The position numbers and the translations under genes were made by a program. 64,000 nucleotides of DNA from Candidatus Omnitrophota bacterium (GTDB taxonomy: Bacteria; Omnitrophota; Omnitrophia; Omnitrophales; Aquincolibacteriaceae): assembly GCA_022709525.1 (NCBI GenBank), contig JAKLIQ010000003.1, positions 129,771-193,770 of the forward strand, given 5' to 3'. A model generated the notes under the pieces. It had not been told where the DNA came from, did no database searches, and saw nothing but the letters and a program-made list of their open reading frames with translations. Shown one piece after another: positions 1,331 to 56,587 of this stretch. The stretch's first letter is position 1; every line of letters starts with the position of its first letter.

Positions 1331-1399
1331 TCCCGCCAAACAGTCCTCTTTCTTGGAAAATCAGGACGCGATCTTTGTGTTAGAATACCTTTTCTACGG

Positions 1400-1492
1400 A
1401 CCCCGTTAGATCTTTGACGGGGCGGTGACCATTTCAACTAGCGCAGTTAAAATGGTTCATGACGAGTTATGAAATAGGAGATCTAACGGGGT
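1400..1492. repeat. Inverted-repeat mini-element copy A (ACCCCGTTAGATCT ... AGATCTAACGGGGT), no ORF
   Basis: 1401-1413 CCCCGTTAGATCT is the exact reverse complement of 1479-1491 AGATCTAACGGGG; same termini as copies at 8158, 34498, 55687. Confidence 0.6.
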
Positions 1493-3407
1493 GGAGATCA
1501 AACGGCTTAAAGTCAACACCCAGATCGGGATCGGGGAGCTCGAAGCGCTTTTGGCAGAGCTTCATTACCAGAAAAGAGAATATGTCGCTTTGCCGGGGGA
1601 GTTCGCCGTGCGGGGCGGCACAGTCGATATTTATCCCGTAACTTACCGCCTTCCAGTCCGGATCCAGCTCCACGGCGACACGTTGGCCCAGATCCGTGAT
1701 TTCTCGCCCGCTTCCGGCGAAAGCACCGCGGTCTTTGAAGAAGTCTTTCTGATCGAAGTCTCCGACCTTTTCCGCAAAAAACTCCGTCGCATGGAAGAAC
1801 GCCTCGAAACTTTCGAGCCCGTTGCCGGCACGAAAGACCTCGAACGCGGCGATCTCGTCGTCCATCTCAAGTACGGCATCGGCCGTTTTCTCGGCACCAA
1901 AGTCATCCAAATGCAAAAGGTGCGCACCCGCTGCATGGCGATCGAATATGCTGACCGCGAGATCCTCTATCTTTCCATGGAAGAACCCGTCGAGCGCTAC
2001 ATCGGCGGCTCCGGCGTTTCTCCGAAACTTACCAAACTCAACACCCAAGAATGGGAACGGATCAAACACCGGACGCGGACGGCGCTTCACAAAGTCGCCC
2101 AAGACCTGCTGCAGATCCAGGCCAAACGCAGTCTTCTGAAAGGCCTGGCTTTTCCCAAGGACACGCCGTGGCAGCGTGAATTCGAGGAGGAATTCCCGTT
2201 CGAAGAAACGCCGGGACAAAAACGCGCGATCGAGGAAGTTAAACGCGATATGGAATCCGACGGGCCCATGGACCGGCTGCTTTGCGGGGATGTGGGTTAC
2301 GGCAAAACCGAAGTCGCGATGCGGGCCGCCTTCAAAGCGGTCATGGGAGGCAAGCAGGCCGCGTTCCTGGTGCCGACCACGATCCTGGCCGAACAGCATT
2401 ATATTTTACTCAAAGACCGCACCAAAAACTTTCCGGCGTCGGTCGGCCTTCTTTCAAGATTTCAAACGCCGCGGGAGCAAAAAGCGATCGTCAAAGCGCT
2501 CCGGGAGGGTGCGATGGATATTGTGATCGGGACCCACCGCCTCCTTTCCAAAGACATCCAGTTCAAGGACCTCGGCCTTGTGATCATTGATGAGGAACAG
2601 CGTTTCGGCGTCCGCCATAAAGAAAAGCTCAAACAAATGCGCACGCAGGTGGACGTTCTGACGCTTACCGCCACGCCGATCCCGAGGACGCTCCATATGG
2701 CGCTTCTGGGGGTCCGGGATATGTCGGTGATCGATACGCCGCCGGAAAACCGGTTGCCGATCGAAACTTTTGTGATGGAATATCACGAGAATATCGTCAA
2801 ACAGGCCATCGAACGGGAACTTGTCCGCAAGGGGCAGGTCTATTTTGTCCACAACCGCGTCCAATCCATCGAGCGGGTCCATGAAAGACTCAAGAAACTT
2901 CTGCCCGCCGTCCGGTTCGGCGTGATGCACGGGCAGATGAAAGTCGAGATGCTCGAGGGCGTTATGAAACAGTTCCTTAAAGGGGAGATTGATTGCCTTA
3001 TTTCGACCAACATCGTGGAATCCGGCATTGATATCCCGAACGTGAATACTTTGATCGTGGACCGGGCCGATTGCTTTGGCTTGGCCGATCTTTACCAGCT
3101 GCGCGGACGGGTCGGGCGTTTCAAGGAAAAACGGCAGGCCTTCGCCTATTTTTTGATCCCGAAGAACTGGGTCATGACCCAGGACGCGCAGAAGCGGCTT
3201 CACGCCATCGAAAAATTCACGCAACTCGGCTCGGGATTCAAGATCGCGATGGAAGACCTTGAGATCCGCGGAACCGGGAACCTGCTCGGGCACGAGCAAA
3301 GCGGCTTTATCCAGGCCGTCGGGTTCGATCTCTACTGCAAAATGCTTAAAAAAGCGGTCGAAGAGCAGAAAAGCAGTAGCTCGGGACTCGGGACTCGATC
3401 TTTGTAA
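1491..3407 (+). CDS. mfd: Transcription-repair coupling factor Mfd, short form (638 aa; RID + translocase modules only)
   Basis: CarD/TRCF RNAP-interacting motif GDLVVHLKYGIGRFLG; SF2 helicase motifs LLCGDVGYGKTEVA, DEEQRFGV, TLTATPIPRTL; TRG-region IRGTGNLLGHEQSGF. GTG start lies inside right IR of copy A, AGGAG at 1476-1480. Confidence 0.8.
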   Translation: MEIKRLKVNTQIGIGELEALLAELHYQKREYVALPGEFAVRGGTVDIYPVTYRLPVRIQLHGDTLAQIRDFSPASGESTAVFEEVFLIEVSDLFRKKLRRMEERLETFEPVAGTKDLERGDLVVHLKYGIGRFLGTKVIQMQKVRTRCMAIEYADREILYLSMEEPVERYIGGSGVSPKLTKLNTQEWERIKHRTRTALHKVAQDLLQIQAKRSLLKGLAFPKDTPWQREFEEEFPFEETPGQKRAIEEVKRDMESDGPMDRLLCGDVGYGKTEVAMRAAFKAVMGGKQAAFLVPTTILAEQHYILLKDRTKNFPASVGLLSRFQTPREQKAIVKALREGAMDIVIGTHRLLSKDIQFKDLGLVIIDEEQRFGVRHKEKLKQMRTQVDVLTLTATPIPRTLHMALLGVRDMSVIDTPPENRLPIETFVMEYHENIVKQAIERELVRKGQVYFVHNRVQSIERVHERLKKLLPAVRFGVMHGQMKVEMLEGVMKQFLKGEIDCLISTNIVESGIDIPNVNTLIVDRADCFGLADLYQLRGRVGRFKEKRQAFAYFLIPKNWVMTQDAQKRLHAIEKFTQLGSGFKIAMEDLEIRGTGNLLGHEQSGFIQAVGFDLYCKMLKKAVEEQKSSSSGLGTRSL

Positions 3408-3441
3408 ACGGGTCCCGAGGTACGAGTCCCTTTTTCACCTT
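3385..3441 (+). terminator. Hairpin cluster + T-run after mfd (tandem cgggact repeats; GGGACTCG…CGAGTCCC then TTTTT)
   Basis: GGGACTCG (two overlapping copies) pairs with CGAGTCCC at 3429-3436 followed by ttttt; inner CTCGGGAC/GTCCCGAG also complementary. Confidence 0.4.
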
Positions 3442-3463: not shown

Positions 3464-4447
3464 ATGAAACGTCTTTTGCTGATCTCCATCATGTTATTCG
3501 TTCTGGAAATGCCGAAATGTTTGCCGCCTGTTCAAGCCGCCGAAGAAGAGCTCTTGGACCGCGTGGTGGCTGTGGTCAACGATGAAGTCATTACCCAGGC
3601 GGAGCTCGATACTTTTTTAAGGCCCGTGTACGAGGAATACAGAAAAGAATACAGTGGCGAAGCCCTGATCAAGGCCGTTAATGAGGTCCGCCAGAAGATC
3701 CTGAACCAGATGATCGAAGATAAGCTGGTCTATCAGGAGGCGGTCCGCCAGGAAATCGTGGTCAAAGACGAGGAAGTCGACAAGGAATTCGAGGAATTCA
3801 AATCCAGGCTCGAGAAGCCCGAAGATCTCGAGATGATGCTCGAGCGGGAAGGACTTACCTTAAAAGCGCTTCGAGAGCGTCTTAAAAAACAGGCCATGAT
3901 CCGTCAGTTGCAGGACCGCGAGGTCCGATCCCGGGTGGTCGTTTCTCCGACGGAAGTGGAGGACTTCTTCAGGAATAATCCCGATAAGTTCAAGGCGAAA
4001 GAGCGCATCAAGGTCCGCTCTCTTACGATCAAAAAAAGCGAAGAAGCCCGCTCCAAAGGGCTGACGGACGAAAAAGCGAAGCAGCGGATCGAGCTTTTGC
4101 AACAAAAGATCAAGCTTTACCGGAATTTCGATCAGATCGTGAAGGATTTTTCGGAGGACAGTCTTGCGAAACAGGAAGGCCTCGGGGACTGGATCGAACG
4201 CGGTACCATGATCGAATCGGTCGATAACGTGATCTTCAATACGCCGGTCGGACAAATGACCGGCATTGTGGAAACGCCCATCGGTTACCACATCTTCCGC
4301 ATCGAAGCCAAAGAACCCGAAAAGACGAGGACTTTTGAAGAGGTTAAAGACCAGATCGGCGGGTATCTCTTCCAGCAGGAAAGTAACGAACGTTTTCGCG
4401 CCTGGATGGAAGAGCTTAAGAAGTTGGCTTATATTTCCATAAAGTAA
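3464..4447 (+). CDS. surA: SurA-like periplasmic chaperone/PPIase (one parvulin domain), signal peptide
   Basis: N-terminal signal peptide MKRLLLISIMLFVL…; parvulin motif GYHIFRIE; conserved surA-pdxA-ksgA gene order. Confidence 0.7.
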   Translation: MKRLLLISIMLFVLEMPKCLPPVQAAEEELLDRVVAVVNDEVITQAELDTFLRPVYEEYRKEYSGEALIKAVNEVRQKILNQMIEDKLVYQEAVRQEIVVKDEEVDKEFEEFKSRLEKPEDLEMMLEREGLTLKALRERLKKQAMIRQLQDREVRSRVVVSPTEVEDFFRNNPDKFKAKERIKVRSLTIKKSEEARSKGLTDEKAKQRIELLQQKIKLYRNFDQIVKDFSEDSLAKQEGLGDWIERGTMIESVDNVIFNTPVGQMTGIVETPIGYHIFRIEAKEPEKTRTFEEVKDQIGGYLFQQESNERFRAWMEELKKLAYISIK

Positions 4448-4466
4448 AAAGGATGGAGGCTGGCGG

Positions 4467-5501
4467 ATGGCGGATGGAGTAAAAACGGCTCTGCGAAAAC
4501 GCCCTCCGGTTGTTGCGATCACCATGGGCGATCCCGGCGGGATCGGCCCCGAGATCGCCGTGAAAGCTCTCAAAAAAGAAAGACCCGGCTCCCGCTGCGC
4601 TTATCTTTTGATCGGCTCGAAAAAGGTTTTTGAAATTCTTCGTAAAAAAACAAAACTTTCTCTTCCTTCCCAAACCCTTTCCTCCGTCGCGCCGGGTTCG
4701 CTTCGTCCGGGACATGTTTATTTTCTGGATATCGCTCCTTCGGTTTCGGGTGCCGGAACTTTCAAGATCGGAAAATTATATAAAGAGAATGGCCGGCTCG
4801 CGCTCGCCGCGATCGCGAAAGCGGCCACCCTTGCCCGCCAAAAGATCGTAGATGCGGTTGTCACCGCGCCGGTGAATAAAGCCGCTGTGCGCCTCGTTGA
4901 CCGGCATTTTATCGGACACACGGAATTCCTGGCCCAAAAAGCGGGAAGCCGCCGTTTTGCCATGATGTTCGTCAGTCCCCGGCTTAACGTCACGCTCGCA
5001 ACGATCCACGTTCCGCTCAAAAAGATCAGCGGCCTTCTGACGGCGAGATCCATCCTCGAAAAAATGACGCTGACGGACGCGATGCTGCGGCGGGGCCTGA
5101 AGATCCCAAGGCCCAGGATCGCTGTGTGCGCCTTAAACCCTCACGGGAAAGAATGCGGCGACGAAGAGGAGAAGATCATCGCGCCCGCGGTTCGCGCCGC
5201 GCGCCGTAGAGGTATTCGTGCATTTGGGCCGTTTTCTGCCGATCTTTTGTTCCACGCTGCTTATCACGGCAGATACGATGCCCTTATCAGCATGTATCAT
5301 GATCAGGCGCTTGGGCCATTCAAACTAGTCGCGTTCCATGACGGCGTCAATGTAACGCTCGGTCTTCCTTATGTCCGGACCTCGCCCGATCACGGTACGG
5401 CTTTTGATATCGCTTATCAGGGGAAAGCCGATCCTTCTTCGATGCTTGCCGCGCTCCGCCTTGCCAAAAAAGCCGTTTTGAAGCAATGCTCACGCAAGTA
5501 G
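4467..5501 (+). CDS. pdxA: 4-hydroxythreonine-4-phosphate dehydrogenase PdxA
   Basis: AITMGDPGGIGPEI, GHTEFLA, HDQALGPFK motifs; synteny. Confidence 0.85.
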   Translation: MADGVKTALRKRPPVVAITMGDPGGIGPEIAVKALKKERPGSRCAYLLIGSKKVFEILRKKTKLSLPSQTLSSVAPGSLRPGHVYFLDIAPSVSGAGTFKIGKLYKENGRLALAAIAKAATLARQKIVDAVVTAPVNKAAVRLVDRHFIGHTEFLAQKAGSRRFAMMFVSPRLNVTLATIHVPLKKISGLLTARSILEKMTLTDAMLRRGLKIPRPRIAVCALNPHGKECGDEEEKIIAPAVRAARRRGIRAFGPFSADLLFHAAYHGRYDALISMYHDQALGPFKLVAFHDGVNVTLGLPYVRTSPDHGTAFDIAYQGKADPSSMLAALRLAKKAVLKQCSRK

Positions 5502-6343
5502 AGCTTCTTAAAAAATACAATCTTCGCATCCGCGGCCATCTCGGACAGCATCTCCTGATGGATCCCAACACGATCCGCAAGATCGTGGACGCCCTTGATC
5601 TTAAACCCGGTGAACGCGTTTTAGAGATAGGCCCCGGCCTTGGCGCCGTGACACAGGAAATCCTGAAACGGGGTTTTTCGTTGCTTGCGGTGGAAAAAGA
5701 CAGGAAATTCGTCGAGATCCTTCAAACCGAACTCGCGCCAGCATATGCCGGAAAATTTACGTTGGTCCACGGCGATATCCTGGAAAATAATCTGACAAAA
5801 ACTCTTCAGGAATGGGCGGGGCAAGGCCCGAAAGTCAAAGCGGTCGGCAATTTACCTTACTATATCAGCACGCCGATCCTTTTTCACCTCATCGAGCATG
5901 CGAAAAATTTTTCAAAAGCCGTGCTCATGCTCCAAAAAGAGGTTGCGGCGAGACTTACGGCGAAACCGGGGGAGGATGATTATGGCCGGCTGAGCGTGAC
6001 AACCCGCTTTTACGGAGAAACGAAGTTTCTTTTTGATGTTTCACCCGCCTGTTTTTTGCCCCGGCCGGAAGTCATGTCGCGCGTTATCGCGTTCACTTTC
6101 CGTTCGTTCGCGCCCGGGATATCCACCGTTTATGAAAAGAAATTCTTAGAACTTGTCCAGATCGCTTTCAGCCAGCGGCGCAAGACCCTTCTTTCGCTGC
6201 TTGCCAACGGGTTCAAGCCCCGGAAAAACCGCAAAGACCTGGAGCGTATTTTCCAGGATCTGGGTTTTGCTTTAAATGCCAGGGGGGAAACGCTCTCCCT
6301 GGAGGAATTTCTCTCCCTCTCGGGCCGCCTGGAAGCCGTTTAA
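5486..6343 (+). CDS. rsmA: 16S rRNA (adenine1518/1519-N6)-dimethyltransferase RsmA/KsgA
   Basis: GQHLLMDPNTIRKIV, LEIGPGLGAVT, GNLPYYISTPILFHL. Confidence 0.85.
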   Translation: MLTQVELLKKYNLRIRGHLGQHLLMDPNTIRKIVDALDLKPGERVLEIGPGLGAVTQEILKRGFSLLAVEKDRKFVEILQTELAPAYAGKFTLVHGDILENNLTKTLQEWAGQGPKVKAVGNLPYYISTPILFHLIEHAKNFSKAVLMLQKEVAARLTAKPGEDDYGRLSVTTRFYGETKFLFDVSPACFLPRPEVMSRVIAFTFRSFAPGISTVYEKKFLELVQIAFSQRRKTLLSLLANGFKPRKNRKDLERIFQDLGFALNARGETLSLEEFLSLSGRLEAV

Positions 6344-7416: not shown

Positions 7417-8115
7417 ATGCTGACTATTGTTCCGACGCCGATCGGCCATCTTTCAGATATCACGCTCCGGGCGCTCGAGGCCTTGAAGAGCGCGGATATG
7501 GTTCTTTGCGAGGACACGCGCCAGACACAGAAGCTTTTGCAGCATTATGGGATCGCGAAACCCCTTTTCAGCTATCACGAGCACAGTTCTGCGCGGAAGA
7601 CCGATGAGATCATTTCGCTTTTAAAGGAAGGAAAGCGCCTCGCGCTCGTTTCAGACGGTGGCACGCCGCTTGTCTCCGATCCGGGATTCCAAGCGGTTCA
7701 TGCGGCGATCGCGGAGGGATTGCCGCTTGAGGTATTGCCGGGTCCTTCGGCCGTCATGACAGCCCTTGTGGCAAGCGGTCTTCCGACCGACAGCTTCAGT
7801 TTTTTAGGGTTTCTTTCGAACAAGGGGCAGAAACGGAAAAACGAGCTCAAAGCGTTAGCGGAGCGGGAAGAAACGCTGATCTTTTTTGAATCGCCCTTTC
7901 GGATCGTCAAGGCATTAGAAGATATGTTCCATGTTTTAGGGGATCGCGAAGCCGCGGTCGCGCGGGAACTTACAAAAAAATTCGAGGAGATCCTCCGCGG
8001 GCCTTTGTCGGAGCTGATACAGGATATGATAAAAAAACCGCGCAAAGGTGAAATGGTGGTGTTGGTAGCCGGCAAGGACCGGAAGAGCGTTTTGCCGAAA
8101 AGGAGCCAAGCATGA
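7417..8115 (+). CDS. rsmI: 16S rRNA 2'-O-ribose C1402 methyltransferase RsmI (tetrapyrrole-methylase fold)
   Basis: MLTIVPTPIGHLSDITLRALEALKSADMVLCEDTRQTQKLL N-terminus typical of RsmI. Confidence 0.8.
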   Translation: MLTIVPTPIGHLSDITLRALEALKSADMVLCEDTRQTQKLLQHYGIAKPLFSYHEHSSARKTDEIISLLKEGKRLALVSDGGTPLVSDPGFQAVHAAIAEGLPLEVLPGPSAVMTALVASGLPTDSFSFLGFLSNKGQKRKNELKALAEREETLIFFESPFRIVKALEDMFHVLGDREAAVARELTKKFEEILRGPLSELIQDMIKKPRKGEMVVLVAGKDRKSVLPKRSQA

Positions 8116-8174
8116 AACGGATCGCTTTTTTAGTGTCCGGCAGCGGGACGAATATGGACCCCGTTAGAGATTGA
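8112..8174 (+). pseudogene. purN: Orphaned original 5' end of purN (MKRIAFLVSGSGTNM + DPVRD*), cut off by element insertion
   Basis: ATG overlaps rsmI stop (ATGA); 13/15 aa identical to start of intact purN at 8446; frame runs into left IR and stops at TGA 8172-8174. Confidence 0.55.
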
Positions 8175-8438
8175 GTGTGATGTATTACACTTATGTTTTG
8201 AGAAGTAAAAAGGATGGTCGATTGTACACAGGTTATGCTTCAGATTTACAGAAGCGCTTCAAACAACATAATGCTGGTGAAGTGCCCGCCACTAAATTCA
8301 GGAGGCCTTTGGAACTCATTTACTGTGAAGCATGTGTTCGTGCGGAAGATGCCAGGGCAAGAGAAAGATACTTGAAAACTGGAATGGGGAAACGATATTT
8401 ACGGAATCGTTTGAAGCGCTTCTTATCTCTAACGGGGT
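8158..8438 (+). mobile_element. GIY-YIG-encoding element bounded by perfect 14-bp inverted repeats (ACCCCGTTAGAGAT / ATCTCTAACGGGGT)
   Basis: 8158-8171 and 8425-8438 are exact reverse complements; interior AT-rich vs host; interrupts purN; same termini found ORF-less at 4 other sites. Confidence 0.55.
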
Positions 8439-29405: not shown

Positions 29406-30455
29406 ATGGACAACATGAAGAATTACTTCCGCCTTTTAGCGGAGGACAAACAAAATGACGCCGCGAGCGCTTTTCTCTCCGTTTTTCTTTCCGTTGCGGC
29501 GTGGGGATACGGCCTCGGGGTAGGTGTATTCCGTTGGCTTTACGAACGGAAGATCCTTCCGCGCAAGAGGCTTCCGTATCCCGTTATAAGCGTCGGCAAT
29601 CTGACTTGGGGAGGCACAGGCAAGACTCCCTTTGTGGAATATCTGGCCCGTAAGATCGGCGCTCACCGCAAGATCCCTCTTGTGCTGACGCGCGGCTACA
29701 GCCACGACGAAGCCCTTGAGCTCCAGCACCATCTTCCGACGGCGGTCATCGGGGTCGGTAAGGACCGGGCCAAAGTGGCGGACCGCGTCCAAAAAGAAAG
29801 AAAACACGTCGATATCGCGATCCTTGACGACGGCCTCCAGCACCAGGCCCTGGAGCGGGATGTGGACATCGCCGTTATCAATTCACTTAATCCTTTCGGC
29901 AATGGCAAGCTGATCCCCCGGGGCATTTTGCGGGAACCGCCCGGAGTCTTGAAGCGCGCGGCCATCGTTGTCCTGACCCATGTCAACCTTGTAAGCCCCG
30001 AAGAGCTTAAAAGACTTAAGGAAAAGATCTCGGTCCTCGCGCCGCAGGCGCAGGTGATCGAGACGGTCATGGAAGTGCTTTTTCTTTACCGGGCCAAGAC
30101 CAAGGTCCGTATGTCGGTCGAAAAAATGAGCGGCCGGCGCGTCGCGACCTTCGCGGCTGTAGGGACCCCCCGTTCTTTTCAGCTCGTTCTCCAGAAATTA
30201 GGCGTTAAAACGGTTCGGAACTTCGAGTTCTTGGATCATCATATTTATACAAAACCGGAGCTTTTAAAGATCAAAGAGATCGCTCAATCCGCGGGCGCCG
30301 AAGAGATCATTACGACCGAAAAGGATTTCTACCGGTCGCGCGAATTGATCACAACCGCGCTCAATCCGTTCGTGCTTGCCGCGCGTCTGCGGGTCGTTTC
30401 AGGCGAAGAGATCCTGACCGACCGGCTTTTCCGCTTGCTCGGAGTAAAAAACTGA
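29406..30455 (+). CDS. lpxK: Tetraacyldisaccharide 4'-kinase
   Basis: ISVGNLTWGGTGKTPFVEYLA P-loop. Confidence 0.85.
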   Translation: MDNMKNYFRLLAEDKQNDAASAFLSVFLSVAAWGYGLGVGVFRWLYERKILPRKRLPYPVISVGNLTWGGTGKTPFVEYLARKIGAHRKIPLVLTRGYSHDEALELQHHLPTAVIGVGKDRAKVADRVQKERKHVDIAILDDGLQHQALERDVDIAVINSLNPFGNGKLIPRGILREPPGVLKRAAIVVLTHVNLVSPEELKRLKEKISVLAPQAQVIETVMEVLFLYRAKTKVRMSVEKMSGRRVATFAAVGTPRSFQLVLQKLGVKTVRNFEFLDHHIYTKPELLKIKEIAQSAGAEEIITTEKDFYRSRELITTALNPFVLAARLRVVSGEEILTDRLFRLLGVKN

Positions 30456-32404
30456 TGGAAGATTTTTTAGACCGTATCGCTTGTTTGTTTGCCAAAGCGC
30501 TCGTTTTCGCCTTAGAACGTTTACCGTTTGAAGCGAGACTGCGTTTCGGAAAAACGATCGGTCATCTTGTTTTCTTTTTTTCAAAGAAACGCCGGATCGC
30601 TTATACCAACTTAAAGGCGGCTCTTGGCGCCAAGCTTTCGGCAAGAGAACGCTGGAAAACAGTTTATGATCATTTGGGGCACATCGGCCAGATGATCGCA
30701 GAAGTCATGTCTTTTCGCCGGCTTACGCGCGAAGATATCGATCAAAATATCAAGATCCACCATCTGGAAAGATTCGAAAAACTTCTTCACTCCGGCCGCG
30801 GCGGCGTTTTGATCACGGCGCATTTCGGCAATTGGGAACTTCTTCAGGTGGTGGCGGGACTTCGCGGGACGCCGATCCATGTATTAGCGCGCGAACAGAA
30901 ATTCCCGCGTTTGAACGAATTCCTTAACAAGCTCCGCGAAACGCACGGATCGGTCGCGATCAGCCGCGGGGCGGGGATCCGTTCCCTTATCCGCGCGCTT
31001 CGCGAAAAACAATTGATCGGAGTTTTAGGGGACCAATCCGCCGGCAAAACCGGAGGCGTTATTCTGCCTTTTTTCGGCAGGAGGACGACGGTACCCACCG
31101 GAGCTTTTGAGCTTGCCCAACGCACCGATTCATTTATTCTCCCGTGTTTCATGGTAAGGACAAACGGCCGACAGCATGAAATTCATATCGGCGAACCGCT
31201 TAAAGACGACCCTTCTCTTGAAGCTTCCGCGCGGGTGGAATTCCAGGTAAAACAATATTTGCATGTCCTCGAAGATTTTATCAGCCGGTTCCCGGACCAG
31301 TGGCTTTGGGAGAATAAACGGTGGAAATACAGCTGGGACCGAAAAATCGTGATTCTTTCGGACGGGAAGGCCGGGCATTTTAAACAGTCGGAAGTGGTGG
31401 CTGGTATGCTAAGTGATTTTAAGGAATTTCACAGCCGTTCCGGATTGCAATTTGAAACCGAAAGGATCCTTGTCGAATACCGTTCCAAGCTCCACAGGAC
31501 CGCTTTGTTCTTGCTGGCGTTCCTGATGAAGCCCTGGATCCAGGGAAGAATCCGCTGGCTTGCTCCTTTTTTTACCGAAGAGACGCAGAGAGCCATCGAA
31601 GAAGTGAACGCGGATTTTCTGATCGCGGCCGGTTCGGGGCTTGCTCCGGTTCAAATGCTTTTGGCGCAAGAAACAGGTGCCAAGAAGATCGTGATCATGA
31701 ACCCGCCTTTTCCTTATTCCATGACCCATTACGATCTTGCGATCGTGCCCGCCCATGACGGCGGCAAAGTTCCCCGGAAAACATTTCGTTCGGTGATCAT
31801 GCCAAGCGGTTACCAGGCCTGCGACCGGACGGCGGATGTCCGGCTACTCGAGACAAAGTTGGGGGATGGGAGGCGCCCGAAGATCGCCGTTTTCTTGGGC
31901 GGCGCGACGCGGAGCTATGACCTGACCGTCTCGGATATGGAAAAGCTCTGTTCGATCCTTAAGCGCGTGGCACCCAGAGCCGGGGATTTTATGATTACGA
32001 CCTCCCGGCGCACCTCGGTCCATGTGGAGCGTTTTCTAAAGAGCACGCTTGCCGAACAGCCCGTCTGCCGGTTCCTTGTGATCGCCTCCGAAGAGAATCC
32101 ATCCTATGCGGCGAGCGGGATGATGGGGCTTGCCGATCTTCTGATCGTGACCGAAGACAGTCTCGCCATGATCTCTGAGGCCGTCGGAACAGGGAAGCGT
32201 GTGATCGTTCTCAGTTTGGGGGAAGGTGACCTGCCGGAGAAACATTACCGCTTTCATCAGATCTTGAGCCAGCGCGGACTCGTGACGCTCAGTTGCCTGG
32301 CGGACCTTGAAAAACATATCGGCGAGCTTTTAAACAAGCCGGCGTTTCCGGTACTTCGCCGGGAGAAAGAAACTTTAAGCGAACGCTTAGGGACCTTGAT
32401 ATGA
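30455..32404 (+). CDS. Fusion: LpxL/HtrB-family lipid A late acyltransferase (aa 1-~290) + ELM1/DUF1022-like domain (aa ~295-649)
   Basis: HFGNWELLQVV…PDQWLWENKRWK (LpxL) then KIVILSDGKAGHFKQSEVVAG (ELM1-like start). Confidence 0.65.
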   Translation: MEDFLDRIACLFAKALVFALERLPFEARLRFGKTIGHLVFFFSKKRRIAYTNLKAALGAKLSARERWKTVYDHLGHIGQMIAEVMSFRRLTREDIDQNIKIHHLERFEKLLHSGRGGVLITAHFGNWELLQVVAGLRGTPIHVLAREQKFPRLNEFLNKLRETHGSVAISRGAGIRSLIRALREKQLIGVLGDQSAGKTGGVILPFFGRRTTVPTGAFELAQRTDSFILPCFMVRTNGRQHEIHIGEPLKDDPSLEASARVEFQVKQYLHVLEDFISRFPDQWLWENKRWKYSWDRKIVILSDGKAGHFKQSEVVAGMLSDFKEFHSRSGLQFETERILVEYRSKLHRTALFLLAFLMKPWIQGRIRWLAPFFTEETQRAIEEVNADFLIAAGSGLAPVQMLLAQETGAKKIVIMNPPFPYSMTHYDLAIVPAHDGGKVPRKTFRSVIMPSGYQACDRTADVRLLETKLGDGRRPKIAVFLGGATRSYDLTVSDMEKLCSILKRVAPRAGDFMITTSRRTSVHVERFLKSTLAEQPVCRFLVIASEENPSYAASGMMGLADLLIVTEDSLAMISEAVGTGKRVIVLSLGEGDLPEKHYRFHQILSQRGLVTLSCLADLEKHIGELLNKPAFPVLRREKETLSERLGTLI

Positions 32405-34497
32405 AAGTGATGCAGCTTCTGCCGGCGCTTGAACTCGGCGGAACAGAGCGCGGTGTGGTCGATCTAGCACGCGCTATGAAAAAAGAAGGGCACGCGACCG
32501 TCGTAGTCTCTTCCGGCGGCGCGCTTGTCGCCGAACTTCAAAAAATGGGGATCCCGCATTATGGTCTTCCGGTCCATCAAAAGTCGCTCGCCGCGTTTTT
32601 TTTAGTCGAAGAACTCGTCAAGATCATCCAGCGGGAACGAGTCGACATCATCCATGCGCGAAGCCGGGTTCCGGCCTGGATCGGCTGGCTGGCGGCGCGC
32701 AAAACAGGCGTTCCGTTCATCACGACATGTCATGGGCATTATTCGGTCCATCTGATGAGTTTTGTCATGGGATGGGGAAAGCGTGTGATCGTCGCATCCC
32801 ACGCGATCGGAAGACGCATGATCGATGAATTCAATGTGCCTCCGGACAGGATCCGCCTGATCCCGCGCGGCGTTGATCTTTCCCAGTTTACTTTTTCTTT
32901 TGCGAAATTTGAGAAACACAAAGGGCCGATGCGAATCGTGCACATCGGAAGATTTTCTCCCGCGAAAGGACAAGTAGAATTTTTAAAGGCGGTCCATTTA
33001 CTTCGCAGCCGCCTTCCTCATTTTGAGGTGTGGATCGTCGGTTCGGAAGGGCGCGGCAAACATCGCTACACGGACCTTATGAAAAAAACGGTCCATCAAT
33101 TCGGCCTTGAATCCTGCGTGAAGATCCTTCCGCCGACCCGCGATGTGGCGGGGCTTCTGGCCCAGGCGGACCTTTTGGTCTTGTCGTCGCTTATCCCCGA
33201 GCCGTTCGGGCGCGTGATCATCGAGGCCGGCGCGGTTGGAACGCCTGTCGCGGCGACCTGGCTCGGCGGTGTACCGGACATTATCGACCATAACGAGAAT
33301 GGATTGCTTTTCCCGCCCAAGAATATTCCTGCAATGGCGGAAGCCATGTACGAACTTTTAACGGACCGGGAAAAAGCCAAGAATTTTGCGGTCAAACTCC
33401 GCAAAAAGGTGGAAGAAAAATTCAATCTCGAACAAATGGTCCGCAAAACGATCGAAGTCTATCAAGAAGTTAGAAAAAGACGGAAAATCCTCGTGATCAA
33501 ACTTGGCGCGATGGGCGATCTGATCCTGGTCGTGCCGAGCCTGCGGATGCTCCGGGAACGTTTTCCGGACGCGTCGATCACGCTTTTAGTCGACCGCAAG
33601 CTCGCTCCGATCGTTTCCGCGTGCCCTTATTTGAACGACATGATCCTTGTGGACCGGAAAAAACTTTCCAATCTTTTTTATCTTTTAAAGACCGCGCGCC
33701 GCGTCCGACGCGAAGGCTTTGATATCTCGGTCGACCTTCATAACAATAAATGGACGCATCTTCTGGCCTATCTTGGAGGTGTGATCCAGCGTTTCGGGTT
33801 CTCACGGGGGAAATGGGGCTTCCTGTTGAACCGTCCCGACAGGACCTTTGAGGTCGGAGATTCGCCCATCCGCCATCAATTCAGGGTGCTTTCCAAAGCC
33901 GGGGTCATCAAATTTGATGATGCGCTGGAGCTTTGGCCGAAGCCCGCAGACCTTGAAAAGGCCAAAGAAGCGATCACGACTTTAGAGCCCAAAGAGCATA
34001 CCAAGATCGTTGGATTCGTGATGGGATCAAGCCCGAATTGGCCGAGCAAACGTTGGCCCGCCGATCATTTCGTAAACCTTGCAAAACGGCTACTCGAAAA
34101 ATATGACGCAAGGATTGTTTTGATCGGTTCGCCGCAGGAAGCGGATCTTGCGAAGCCTTTTTATTCTTTCAAGTCCGGCGCTGTGCTGGACCTCACGGGG
34201 AAAACCGCGCTTGAAGAATTGCCGGCCTTTTTCAAACAGTTCCATCTGGTCGTGACGGGCGATACGGCGCCGCTTCATGTCGCTGCCGCCATGAACATTC
34301 CGACCGTTGCCCTTTTTGGGCCGACGGACGCCAAGCGCCATGTCCCGCCGGGGAAGCGGCTCGACGTCCTTTCCCATCATCTGCCTTGCCAGCCTTGCTA
34401 CAGCGGCACATGCAAGATCAAGGAAACCCAGGCCTGCCTGACGCATATTTCCGTTGAAGAAGTTTTTGAACACTGCCAGAGGATGCTTGGATCATGA
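32401..34497 (+). CDS. Fusion glycosyltransferase: GT4 (GT-B, aa 1-~360) + GT9 heptosyltransferase-like domain (aa ~365-698)
   Basis: EAGAVGTPVAATWLGGVPDIIDHNENGLLF (GT4 EX7E region) then ILVIKLGAMGDLILVVPSL (GT9 N-term). Confidence 0.7.
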   Translation: MKVMQLLPALELGGTERGVVDLARAMKKEGHATVVVSSGGALVAELQKMGIPHYGLPVHQKSLAAFFLVEELVKIIQRERVDIIHARSRVPAWIGWLAARKTGVPFITTCHGHYSVHLMSFVMGWGKRVIVASHAIGRRMIDEFNVPPDRIRLIPRGVDLSQFTFSFAKFEKHKGPMRIVHIGRFSPAKGQVEFLKAVHLLRSRLPHFEVWIVGSEGRGKHRYTDLMKKTVHQFGLESCVKILPPTRDVAGLLAQADLLVLSSLIPEPFGRVIIEAGAVGTPVAATWLGGVPDIIDHNENGLLFPPKNIPAMAEAMYELLTDREKAKNFAVKLRKKVEEKFNLEQMVRKTIEVYQEVRKRRKILVIKLGAMGDLILVVPSLRMLRERFPDASITLLVDRKLAPIVSACPYLNDMILVDRKKLSNLFYLLKTARRVRREGFDISVDLHNNKWTHLLAYLGGVIQRFGFSRGKWGFLLNRPDRTFEVGDSPIRHQFRVLSKAGVIKFDDALELWPKPADLEKAKEAITTLEPKEHTKIVGFVMGSSPNWPSKRWPADHFVNLAKRLLEKYDARIVLIGSPQEADLAKPFYSFKSGAVLDLTGKTALEELPAFFKQFHLVVTGDTAPLHVAAAMNIPTVALFGPTDAKRHVPPGKRLDVLSHHLPCQPCYSGTCKIKETQACLTHISVEEVFEHCQRMLGS

Positions 34498-49539: not shown

Positions 49540-50265
49540 ATGAATTTGCTTGAAACAAAACAGCTCACCAAAAGTTACAAGGGCCGCACCGTGGTCAATC
49601 AGGTCAATATCCAGATCTCGCGCGGCGAGATCGTGGGTCTTTTAGGCCCGAACGGCGCCGGTAAAACAACGTCCTTTTACATGGTGGTCGGCGTGATCCG
49701 GCCGGATTCCGGGCAGATCTTTTTCCGCGGCGAGGAGATCACGAACCTCCCGATGTTCGAGCGCGCGCGCCTCGGGATCGGCTATCTTTCCCAGGAGCCT
49801 TCCGTATTTCGCAAGCTGACCGTGGAAGAGAACATCATGGCGATCCTGGAGACCCTCGAGATCCCGCAGGAAGAACGCGATCGCCGCCTCAAACGGCTTT
49901 TGAACGATCTGGACATCGCGTATCTCGCGAAAAACAAGGCCTACACGCTTTCCGGCGGCGAACGGCGGCGGCTTGAGATCACGCGCGCCCTTGTCACGAA
50001 CCCTTCGCTTATCCTTCTGGATGAACCCTTCAGCGGCGTGGACCCGATCGCGGTCTTCGAGGTGCAAAAGATCCTGCAGCGGCTCAAGGCCCAGGGGCTC
50101 AGCATCCTTCTGACGGACCATAGCGTCCGCGAAACGCTTTCGATCACCGACCGATCTTATCTTCTTTTTGAGGGCAAGGTGGAGGTCTCCGGAACTTCAG
50201 AATTCCTTGCGTCCGACCCCAAAGCCAGAGAGATCTATCTGGGAGAAAGGTTCACGCTAGCGTAA
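49540..50265 (+). CDS. lptB: LPS export ABC ATPase LptB
   Basis: GLLGPNGAGKTT, LSGGERRRLEI, ILLDEPF. Confidence 0.8.
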   Translation: MNLLETKQLTKSYKGRTVVNQVNIQISRGEIVGLLGPNGAGKTTSFYMVVGVIRPDSGQIFFRGEEITNLPMFERARLGIGYLSQEPSVFRKLTVEENIMAILETLEIPQEERDRRLKRLLNDLDIAYLAKNKAYTLSGGERRRLEITRALVTNPSLILLDEPFSGVDPIAVFEVQKILQRLKAQGLSILLTDHSVRETLSITDRSYLLFEGKVEVSGTSEFLASDPKAREIYLGERFTLA

Positions 50266-54714: not shown

Positions 54715-55703
54715 TGGAAGCTTATCTTAAAGATCTGGGTCCTCAGATCGTCAAAGCCCGCGCGATCGCCGCCGGCATCAGTCTTTCCCCGTCTTTCATC
54801 AAACGGCCCGCGAAGGTCCTCTATTGCGGGATGGGCGGATCCGCCATTAGCGGCGACATTCTCGGAACGATCGCTCAAAGCCGTTCCCGTATCCATTGGA
54901 CCGTGAACCGCACTTCGCGCCTTCCCGAATGGGTCGACTCCAAAACGATCGTGATCCTTTCCAGTTATTCCGGCAACACTCATGAGGTCCGGTCGATCTT
55001 TGAACAGGCTGTGGCGCGAAAGGCCCATTTTCTGGTGGTAGCTTCCGGGGGATGGCTTGCGGAGGAAGCGTTAAAAAGGAAGATCCCGTTCTTCCGCCTG
55101 CCGCAGGGTTATCCGCCGCGGTTCGCGATCGGCTATACGACCTTTTCGCTTCTTTTTCTTTTCATGCGTTACAAATGGTTCTCGGTCTCCGGAAAAGAGA
55201 TCCAGGAAGTGATCCGGGCCGTGAAACGCTTTCCTCAAAAAGAAGCCCACCGCCTTGCCAAACGGCTTTTTGAAAAAAATATTGCGATCTACGGGGGCGG
55301 CCTCATGCAATCGGCCGCTTTGCGGTGGCGCACCCAATTGGCGGAAAATGCGAAAACACTCGCTTCCTGCGAAGCGTTGCCCGAAATGTTCCACCATGAG
55401 ATCGAAGGATGGACCTTCCCGGTTTTTAAGGTCAAAAATTCCGTCGCGATCTTCTTGACGGACCGGAATGAACCGGACTGGCTTTTAAAGAAAAAACAAG
55501 TGGCCATGAAAGTGATCCGCGAAGGCGGCGCCGAGACGATCGAACTGAAGACGGCCGGCCAAGGGGCCCTGGCCCGTATTTTTTCCATGATCCTGCTCGG
55601 CGATTGGACAAGCTGTGAGCTTGCGAAGCTCTGCAAGGTCGATCCGATGTCGATCGGGGCGATCGATCGCATCAAAAAGGCGGTTCACCCCGTTAGAGAC
55701 TAA
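54714..55703 (+). CDS. SIS-domain bifunctional phosphoglucose/phosphomannose isomerase family protein
   Basis: VLYCGMGGSAISGDILGT; last residues HPVRD* encoded by left IR of copy D. Confidence 0.6.
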   Translation: MEAYLKDLGPQIVKARAIAAGISLSPSFIKRPAKVLYCGMGGSAISGDILGTIAQSRSRIHWTVNRTSRLPEWVDSKTIVILSSYSGNTHEVRSIFEQAVARKAHFLVVASGGWLAEEALKRKIPFFRLPQGYPPRFAIGYTTFSLLFLFMRYKWFSVSGKEIQEVIRAVKRFPQKEAHRLAKRLFEKNIAIYGGGLMQSAALRWRTQLAENAKTLASCEALPEMFHHEIEGWTFPVFKVKNSVAIFLTDRNEPDWLLKKKQVAMKVIREGGAETIELKTAGQGALARIFSMILLGDWTSCELAKLCKVDPMSIGAIDRIKKAVHPVRD

Positions 55704-55816
55704 CAGGGGAACGCTTTGTGATTTTTTGAGATGAAAAAGATGGGATCTCTGAAGAAACTCTTCAATCATTATTTAACGGAAGCGCCCGAAAAGGCGCTTC
55801 CTGTCTCTAACGGGGT
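55687..55816. repeat. Inverted-repeat mini-element copy D (ACCCCGTTAGAGAC…GTCTCTAACGGGGT)
   Basis: Perfect 14-bp reverse-complement termini 55687-55700 / 55803-55816; interior has strong hairpin GAAGCGCC-cgaaaa-GGCGCTTC and a 31-codon ORF. Confidence 0.55.
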
Positions 55817-55822
55817 AAATTC

Positions 55823-56587
55823 ATGAGCTTAAAAGTCATCATTCTTTGCGCCGGTTACGCGACCCGCCTTTACCCCTTGACGGAGAATATGCCAAAGCCG
55901 CTTCTTCCGGTCGGGAAGAAGCCCATCCTTGAATGGATCTTGGAAAGGGTCCAAAAAGTCCGTGAAGTGGAAGCCGTTTATCTCGTGAGCAACCAAAAGT
56001 TCGCCGGGCATTTCGAGAACTGGGCCGAAAAAGCGAAATACCCCTGGCCTATTCAGGTTGTGAACGATCACACGACAAGCAACGAGACCCGCCTGGGGGC
56101 CATCGGGGACCTGGCTTATGTGATCGAAACGGAAAAGCTCGCTCCTTCGGACCTTTTGGTGATCGCCGGCGATAATTTCTTCGATTTCGATCTTGTTTCG
56201 TTCGTGGATTTCGGCAACAGAAAAAGGCCGCACGGCGTGATCGCGGTTTATGACGTCGGGGATAAAGAGCTTGCAAAGCGCTATGGCCTGGTGCGGGTCG
56301 ATCCGGAAGGGAAGATCCTCGAATTCCAGGAAAAACCGCCGCAGCCGGCCACCACGCTTGCCTCCAGCGGCATTTACTGGCTCCCGAAGGAGGCCTGGAC
56401 CTTGCTTGACAGGTATATCGCTAGCGGCCATAATACAGACCAACCCGGCCATTATATGCGCTGGCTGGCCGAAACATCGGGCCTTTTCGCTTTTTCTCTC
56501 AAGGGGAAGTGGTTGGATATAGGCGACCTTGCCTCCTATGAGAAAGCCAACGCCATCGTCAATACCCCAAACAAACCAAAGGAGTAG
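55823..56587 (+). CDS. Sugar-1-phosphate nucleotidyltransferase (RmlA/HddC-like)
   Basis: [30 protein letters not shown]. Confidence 0.7.

Follow-up and report, generated by a model that had tools for sequence, protein, structure and literature searches.

A natural short Mfd of Omnitrophota that keeps D2, the RNA-polymerase interaction domain and the motor

The stretch of DNA analyzed here, called the window, comprises 64,000 nucleotides (64 kb) of contig JAKLIQ010000003.1 from a Candidatus Omnitrophota bacterium, and the gene under study is its mfd. In bacteria, Mfd serves as the model transcription-repair coupling factor, and it has been proposed as a target for anti-evolution drugs. In the list of open reading frames (ORFs) the gene occupies positions 1491 to 3407 of the forward strand. 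It starts with GTG, ends with TAA (3405-3407) and encodes 638 amino acids (aa), a compact protein of 72 kDa. In-frame stop codons lie shortly 5' of the start. The 5' neighbour is a class I/II aminotransferase gene (aspAT) ending at 1330. The 3' neighbour, a gene for a SurA-like peptidyl-prolyl isomerase, begins at 3464 after a gap of 56 nt. The coding region was divided into the following parts.

1491..3407, + strand: mfd coding sequence (ORF list; TIGR00580)
1506..1751, + strand: D2, the UvrB-homology/UvrA-interaction domain, aa 6-87 (PF17757; Mfd alignments; hidden Markov model (HMM) of D2; AlphaFold2 (AF2))
1752..1838, + strand: linker, aa 88-116, with a helix at 92-105 and a low-confidence loop (BLASTP; AF2)
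1839..2000, + strand: D4, the RNA-polymerase interaction domain (RID), aa 117-170 (CarD_TRCF_RID; E. coli 473-530)
2049..2132, + strand: relay helix, aa 187-214 (AF2 helix 187-214)
2166..2750, + strand: TD1/D5, aa 226-420, with Walker A GDVGYGKT and motif II DEEQRFG (Pfam DEAD)
2751..3374, + strand: TD2/D6, aa 421-628, with the TRG motif and two hook helices (601-632) (Helicase_C; alignment; AF2)
3375..3404, + strand: variable 10-aa C-terminal tail, the SSSSGLGTRSL region (homologue alignment)

The product passes the NCBIfam equivalog model for mfd, TIGR00580, with 869.2 bits against a cutoff of 800. This agrees with the original prediction, made from the sequence alone, which had read the ORF as a 638-aa Mfd; the translation contains the peptides quoted there, GDLVVHLKYGIGRFLG and ...GFDLYCKMLKKAVEEQK, as well as the tail SSSSGLGTRSL. 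The full-length enterobacterial-type model NF007966 is failed (611.9 bits, cutoff 1329). An assignment as RecG was considered and rejected. The motor is homologous to that of RecG and carries the TRG motif (up to 404 bits with RecG models; 1GM5 matched), but the protein stays far below the cutoff of every RecG NCBIfam model (the best gives 404 bits against 718), and its N-terminus consists of D2 and RID in place of the wedge domain. An identical protein, P0001, is annotated as 'transcription-repair coupling factor [Candidatus Omnitrophota bacterium]'.

Domain content was determined with Pfam and by alignment. Matches were obtained for UvrB_inter (PF17757; aa 6-87, E 1.7e-17), CarD_TRCF_RID (PF02559; aa 117-164, E 3.7e-10), DEAD (aa 240-402, E 6.5e-26) and Helicase_C (aa 440-544, E 4.4e-21), and none for TRCF/D7 (PF03461). 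In a BLASTP alignment with E. coli Mfd, aa 6-87 correspond to residues 130-211, which is D2, and aa 87-628 to residues 443-988; the region from RID to TD2 is 48% identical over 548 residues. Aligned to the solved structure of Mycobacterium smegmatis Mfd, aa 6-78 correspond to 176-248 and aa 110-632 to 532-1054. The order of domains is D2, a short linker, D4 (RID), the relay helix, D5, and D6 with the TRG motif and hook helices. The linker aligns with the end of D3 plus the D3-D4 linker of the E. coli protein (residues 443-478), and the short protein ends at about E. coli residue 988, 10 aa past the hook helices. Neither the alignments nor the domain HMMs revealed a region aligned to D1a, D1b or D3 in the 638-aa protein. 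The missing pieces are D1a at the N-terminus (~125 residues), D1b with most of D3 internally (~230 residues; E. coli 212-442) and D7 with its linker at the C-terminus (~160 residues). In total ~510 residues and four of the eight Mfd domains (D1a, D1b, D3 and D7) are gone, and D2 is the sole part of the UvrB-homology module that is kept. The protein lacks D1a, an internal D1b/D3 stretch and D7 while retaining D2, and therefore is not a simple N-terminal truncation. The original prediction had described a late-starting Mfd with intact RID and translocase and without the UvrA-recruiting N-terminus and D7. The intact RID and translocase, the absence of D7 and the unusual shortness were borne out, but aa 6-87 are D2 itself, and what is lost in the N-terminal half includes the internal D1b/D3 stretch.

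The TD1 motif residues (Walker A, motif II) are invariant in the short family, as is R593 of the TRG motif (E. coli R953). W188 at the relay helix, equivalent to E. coli W550, is invariant in 72 short sequences; the role of W550 and of the hook-relay interface has been described for Mfd (PMC3488230). In D4, I139 takes the position of E. coli L499. The C-terminal tails vary in length and sequence across all homologues, with a mean pairwise identity of 9%. An AF2 model built from an alignment of 72 homologues reached a mean predicted local distance difference test (pLDDT) score of 79.8 and a predicted template modelling (pTM) score of 0.63, and superseded an earlier run on 36 sequences (pLDDT 66, pTM 0.46). 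D2 scored 85-92, and linker residues 100-112, below 50, were the sole low stretch. A Foldseek search with the model returned mycobacterial and E. coli Mfd structures as top matches (E down to 1.7e-61; query-normalised TM ~0.72).

The distribution of the short form was analyzed in a collection of 5.8 billion proteins, with the 638-aa protein and a 55%-identical cluster representative as seeds. The search recovered 240 distinct 90%-identity clusters of 615-653 aa, plus one partial sequence, at identities of 47-100%. The precomputed Pfam set was the same in all 240, and PF03461 occurred in none. Where the clusters were named, the labels were Candidatus Omnitrophota or Omnitrophica, apart from one Verrucomicrobiae and one Elusimicrobia label. 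In a set of 1.84 billion representatives at 50% identity, the top two matches were short (640 and 642 aa), and the following 148 measured 929-1337 aa. Two of the representatives, P0229 (929 aa) and P0250 (953 aa), have D1-D6 without a TRCF/D7 Pfam match and end just past the motor. They could be either other D7-less variants from outside Omnitrophota or contig-end fragments, and were left unused as evidence. In the GTDB species genomes, 25 loci with close relatives of the short mfd were found; the ORFs measured at L019-L024 have 599-648 aa. The original prediction had proposed a comparison of Mfd length in related genomes: the short form is shared (599-653 aa), in contrast to 1092-1225 aa in the next-best GTDB matches (Bacillota, Hydrogenedentota and others). 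In 36 aligned homologues the N-termini (M-x-x-x-x-L/I-K...) coincide, and so do the C-termini (...AVEE-x-K followed by the variable tail).

The surroundings of the gene are conserved as well. The order aspAT-mfd-surA-pdxA-ksgA-ispB is kept in up to 25 species-level genomes, down to ~60% identity. We also noted that surA-pdxA-ksgA (rsmA) downstream of mfd (3464-6343) are arranged as in the E. coli surA-pdxA-rsmA cluster, and that this order is kept across the examined Omnitrophota loci. The closest named relative belongs to the class Omnitrophia, genus Aquincolibacterium: locus L005 (88% identity) derives from GCA_001804345.1, listed as Omnitrophia; Omnitrophales; Aquincolibacterium in a supplementary table of Seymour et al. 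2023. In a neighbour-joining tree of the RID-TD2 core, all 72 short forms make up one split apart from 149 full-length forms (bootstrap support 46/60 in a half-size set), and this grouping favours a single origin of the short form. The short Mfd is real and lineage-wide in Omnitrophota, and the gene is an intact, conserved and ordinary mfd with an unusual architecture. A literature search found no published natural short form of Mfd and no published D2-RID-motor architecture.

The original prediction had placed the start inside a copy of an inverted repeat and offered insertion of an element as a possible cause of the truncation. A perfect 14-nt inverted repeat (1400-1413 / 1479-1492) is indeed present, and the start codon falls in its right arm. 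This repeat, I9, was detected in a local search only, and the whole-window search for repeats of at least 30 nt gave no long inverted repeat at the mfd start. Two features were defined here.

1378..1386, + strand: extended -10-like element TGTTAGAAT (the only nearly invariant columns in the upstream alignment)
1400..1492, + strand: MITE-like (miniature inverted-repeat transposable element-like) insert of 93 nt with perfect 14-nt terminal inverted repeats ACCCCGTTAGATCT / AGATCTAACGGGGT (repeat I9; folding; relatives without the insert)

The insert folds with -38.9 kcal/mol (z = -4.9). It is present in the window and in L004 (5892-6002), between the -10-like element and the old start. Loci L005, L006, L009 and L013 are free of it and read TGnTAAAAT, 9 nt, then ATGGAGATC. 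In the window, the right end of the insert provides AGGAG (1476-1480), 10 nt upstream of the GTG, which is composed of the last two bases of the repeat and the first flanking G. The old ATG has become ACG; in L004 it is still ATG. Thus the insert altered the leader and the start codon, not the protein N-terminus. It is not the cause of the shortening, because the insert-free relatives have the same N-terminus.

A recent accident, be it truncation by the inverted-repeat element, a frameshift or a misassembly, is hardly credible as an explanation of the short gene. Its one point of support is the position of the start codon in the right arm of the insert. Against it, the four insert-free loci share the N-terminus (MEI...), starting at ATG, and in relatives without the insert the aspAT stop lies only ~70 nt upstream of mfd. 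Identical or near-identical proteins occur in independent assemblies (NCBI, ENA, JGI, Logan), and more than 240 clusters share the short architecture. In the window, in-frame stops precede the start and only 56 nt separate the gene from the next one downstream. The ratio of nonsynonymous to synonymous substitution rates (dN/dS) is well below 1. The upstream frameshift or assembly error that the original prediction named as its possible undoing is refuted by this comparison.

The same alignment bears on expression of the gene. In the insert-free relatives the -10-like element stands ~9 nt upstream of the ATG. We infer a promoter function for TGnTAAAAT, and the short distance suggests that in this lineage mfd is normally translated from an mRNA with no leader or almost none. 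Within the insert, a sigma-70-like site GTGACC-17-TAAAAT is located at 1425-1453, which might drive transcription. A different small element, with ends TCCCAAC... / ...GTTGGGA, was observed between the -10-like element and the mfd ATG in L002 (~5925-6000) and at the equivalent positions of L007 and L026. The interval between -10 and ATG of mfd appears to be a hot spot for insertions.

We then considered a split Mfd, with one or several separate genes at other genomic sites providing the absent domains in trans. The search covered 64 kb of the source genome and ~14 kb per relative, which leaves room for a distant gene. With full-length E. coli and Brevibacillus Mfd as queries, tblastn on the window and the 25 Omnitrophota loci matched only D2 and D4-D6, all within mfd. 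A set of 139 full-length Mfds served to build HMMs for D1a, D1b, D3 and D7, with D2 as a control, and 6822 six-frame ORFs were scanned with them. The four missing domains gave nothing better than an independent E-value (i-E) of 0.024, and the best match for D7 had i-E 1.6. In contrast, the D2 control was positive on every short gene with E 1e-21 to 1e-25. Marginal D3 matches (i-E ~0.025) in 38-aa stop-to-stop ORFs ~4.4 kb upstream of mfd at several loci were judged spurious, since the match spans 29 residues and the ORFs are too short for the domain. The flanks consist of housekeeping genes in conserved order. The separate D1-D2 polypeptide that the original prediction had raised as a counter-indication was thus not found in the window or at the 25 loci, and we consider a split Mfd very unlikely.

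What D2 does in the short protein was approached through its conservation. In E. coli, substitution of R165, R181 and F185 of D2 (the D2AAA mutant) abolishes transcription-coupled repair (Manelyte 2010, a study of engineered Mfd derivatives; PMC3025350). The equivalent of R165, R41, is arginine in 66 of 72 short sequences and lysine in five (R in 144/148 full-length forms). For R181 the equivalent is R57, with arginine in 71/72 and lysine in the remaining one (R in 148/148 full-length forms). G42 and P55 of D2 are invariant in the short family, and D46 and P49 nearly so. The dN/dS values are 0.10-0.20 for D2 compared with 0.03-0.10 for the motor; dS is saturated, so these values are rough. D2 is therefore under purifying selection. 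In our reading D2 is kept for a function, most simply UvrA binding, with a re-tuned surface.

Results on E. coli Mfd are relevant here. Without D7 the protein is de-repressed, and strand-specific repair is kept in vitro and in vivo, whereas this repair is lost in the D2 triple mutant and upon deletion of the UvrB-homology module (PMC3025350). Removal of D7, or of the UvrB-homology module, relieves the repression of ATPase and translocation, and an unshielded D2 possibly carries the cost of UvrA sequestration (PMC3025350). The original prediction had concluded that this Mfd can displace RNA polymerase but cannot couple to nucleotide excision repair (NER). That conclusion is not supported, because D2 is retained and conserved and D7-less E. 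coli Mfd still repairs. By analogy with E. coli, and with UvrA binding assigned by homology, the short Mfd probably still couples transcription to repair.

Several observations weigh against this. At position 61, the equivalent of F185, the short family has D, E, R or H (H61 here), compared with an aromatic residue (F or W) in 108/148 full-length forms, and conservation is lower at R69 (E. coli R193) too. D2 evolves two to four times faster than the motor, as far as saturated dS allows this to be measured. With a mean pairwise identity of 39% it is the least conserved folded domain (motor 63-70%); the linker, at 28%, is the least conserved segment except for the C-terminal tail. We know of no demonstration that an isolated D2 folds or works without the flanking D1a and D1b. 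Finally, tblastn with the E. coli proteins found neither uvrA nor uvrB in the window or at the 25 Omnitrophota loci. The only matches to these queries were a generic ABC ATPase (49882-50211) and D2 and the motor of mfd. In favour of coupling, in the part of the 'KO counts per genome' table of Seymour et al. 2023 that was consulted, both Omnitrophota genomes have K03701, K03702 and K03703 (uvrA, uvrB, uvrC) together with K03723 (mfd). A literature search found no paper joining Omnitrophota and uvrA, and the main text of two Omnitrophota genomics papers is without Mfd or Uvr.

In a different account, the protein is an RNA polymerase-displacing or anti-backtracking translocase uncoupled from NER, and D2 is kept for another purpose, for instance capping the structure, contacting DNA or standing in as a regulatory element. 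The family-wide loss of the F185 aromatic, the relaxed R193 position and the low identity of D2 all fit it. So does the absence of D1a and D1b, between which D2 sits in UvrB and in all Mfds characterised so far, and NER-independent roles of Mfd have been reported (e.g. PMC5053507). On the other hand, D2 alone was kept from the UvrB-homology module while everything around it was deleted, both arginines of the UvrA surface are nearly invariant, and dN/dS of D2 is 0.1-0.2. Moreover, RID and motor suffice for RNA polymerase displacement in E. coli, as deletion of the UvrB-homology module demonstrates, so that a pure displacement factor would have no reason to retain D2. We regard the uncoupled translocase as rather unlikely, and prefer D2 retained for UvrA.

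In canonical Mfd, RID binds the beta subunit of RNA polymerase, and TD1 and TD2 translocate on upstream DNA and push the polymerase (PMC3488230, PMC7864632). In free E. coli Mfd, the D2:D7 clamp together with the D1-D3 contacts keeps the protein repressed and the UvrA surface hidden until loading has finished (PMC3488230, PMC7864632). By homology with E. coli, from which polymerase displacement, de-repression and UvrA binding are all carried over, the short protein would work as follows. RID would dock on stalled RNA polymerase at the beta subunit, and TD1/TD2 would translocate on the upstream duplex and push the enzyme forward or off the DNA. With no D2:D7 clamp and no D1-D3 contacts to the motor, ATPase and translocation would be free of such autoinhibition, and the interface between hook helices and relay helix, with its invariant W188, would be the only known control point left. 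D2 would never be masked, hence UvrA could be recruited directly, with no need for an unmasking step. The cell may put up with the cost of UvrA sequestration, or a weaker interface may compensate for it. Engineered, de-repressed derivatives of E. coli Mfd were reportedly described by Smith in 2007 and by Murphy in 2009.

Comparison with known systems places the short form as follows. With canonical Mfd (E. coli 2EYQ, 6X26; M. smegmatis 6AC6) it shares RID, relay helix, TD1, TD2, TRG and hook helices, a homologous D2 with equivalents of R165 and R181, and a score above the TIGR00580 cutoff. In contrast to canonical Mfd, it is devoid of D1a, D1b, D3 and D7 and hence of a D2:D7 clamp, joins D2 to RID by a linker of ~30 residues, and has a non-aromatic equivalent of F185. 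UvrB domain 2 belongs to the same Pfam family, PF17757, and has the same signature, G-x-F-x-x-R-G ... D ... R ... F; this domain is inserted into domain 1 of UvrB and of canonical Mfd, whereas in the short form it is N-terminal and without domain 1. The engineered D7-less, de-repressed E. coli Mfd (PMC3025350) likewise has no D7 and an exposed D2, and de-repression and repair competence may be extended to the short form by analogy. Unlike the engineered proteins, which kept the whole UvrB-homology module or none of it, the short form is natural and lineage-wide and also lacks D1a, D1b and D3. Thermus thermophilus Mfd (978 aa; 6M6A, 13JQ) is another natural Mfd without autoinhibition by a stable D2:D7 clamp (PMC13453472), but it has D1a-D2-D1b and D7, and its clamp is dynamic rather than deleted. 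As D7-less E. coli Mfd is de-repressed yet repair-competent and T. thermophilus Mfd is naturally de-repressed, the Omnitrophota protein should be a constitutively active translocase with D2 always open to UvrA.

We consider it reasonably likely that this is the normal mfd of the Omnitrophota lineage, whose ancestor lost D1a, D1b, D3 and D7 and kept D2, linker, RID, relay helix, TD1, TD2, TRG and hook helices, resulting in a de-repressed Mfd with exposed D2. With more reserve, at somewhat less than an even chance, we propose a natural minimal coupling factor. Here D2 tethered to RID and motor would be enough to hand sites of stalled polymerase to UvrA without the D1/D3 scaffold, the D7 mask or ATP-dependent unmasking. 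If this is true, the gating steps are lineage-specific additions outside the core mechanism, and the family-wide swap of the F185 aromatic for an acidic residue marks a re-tuned D2-UvrA interface. Current models stress the D2:D7 clamp, a swinging D1-D3 module and staged unmasking of the UvrA site as proofreading (PMC7864632). A phylum-level lineage without clamp and scaffold but with D2 serves as a natural experiment on the essential parts, and adds to the recent evidence that not every Mfd is autoinhibited (PMC13453472). At 72 kDa the protein is also compact enough to suit structural and single-molecule studies. In annotation, the family goes only by 'transcription-repair coupling factor', which leaves the absent half unmarked.

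The 3' end of the gene carries a further structure.

3379..3435, + strand: terminator-like hairpin over the mfd stop codon, followed by TTTTT at 3431-3435 (folding; inverted repeats I11, I14, I15)

The hairpin proper (about 3379-3427) holds a tandem CGGGACT-CGGGACT repeat, and the last codons and the stop are inside it. The original prediction had described the last residues as encoded by such a repeat and hairpin, and folding agrees (-28.3 kcal/mol, z = -3.37; none of 200 shuffles was as stable).

Relatives of the insert at the mfd start were seen elsewhere in the window. A larger member of the family lies at 8158-8438, between rsmI and purN, with the ends ACCCCGTTAGAG / CTCTAACGGGGT, and encodes a 92-aa GIY-YIG nuclease ORF (Pfam E 3.3e-16). 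It occupies the same site in L017 (12831-13107) and is absent from 12 other relatives. On its left, 15 codons remain as a relic of the 5' end of purN (8112-8158, MKRIAFLVSGSGTNM); on its right, the purN start is intact (8446). Therefore the element seems to have inserted in purN codon 15-16 (target AATATGG^A; L006 has it intact), and a replacement 5' end would have come with it or been kept downstream. It looks like a homing-type mobile element. A third copy of the family, ~130 nt at 55687-55815, is located directly upstream of an ORF starting at 55823, and the stop codon of the upstream ORF (55701-55703) falls within its left terminal repeat. All three copies in the window are at a gene start or within a few dozen bases of one, and more copies were found in L003 and L004.

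Two apparent gene fusions were observed in a cell-envelope gene cluster of the window. The ORF at 30455-32401 (649 aa) joins a Lip_A_acyltrans domain to an ELM1-like domain, and the one at 32401-34494 (698 aa) joins glycosyltransferase family 4 (GT4) and GT9 heptosyltransferase domains.

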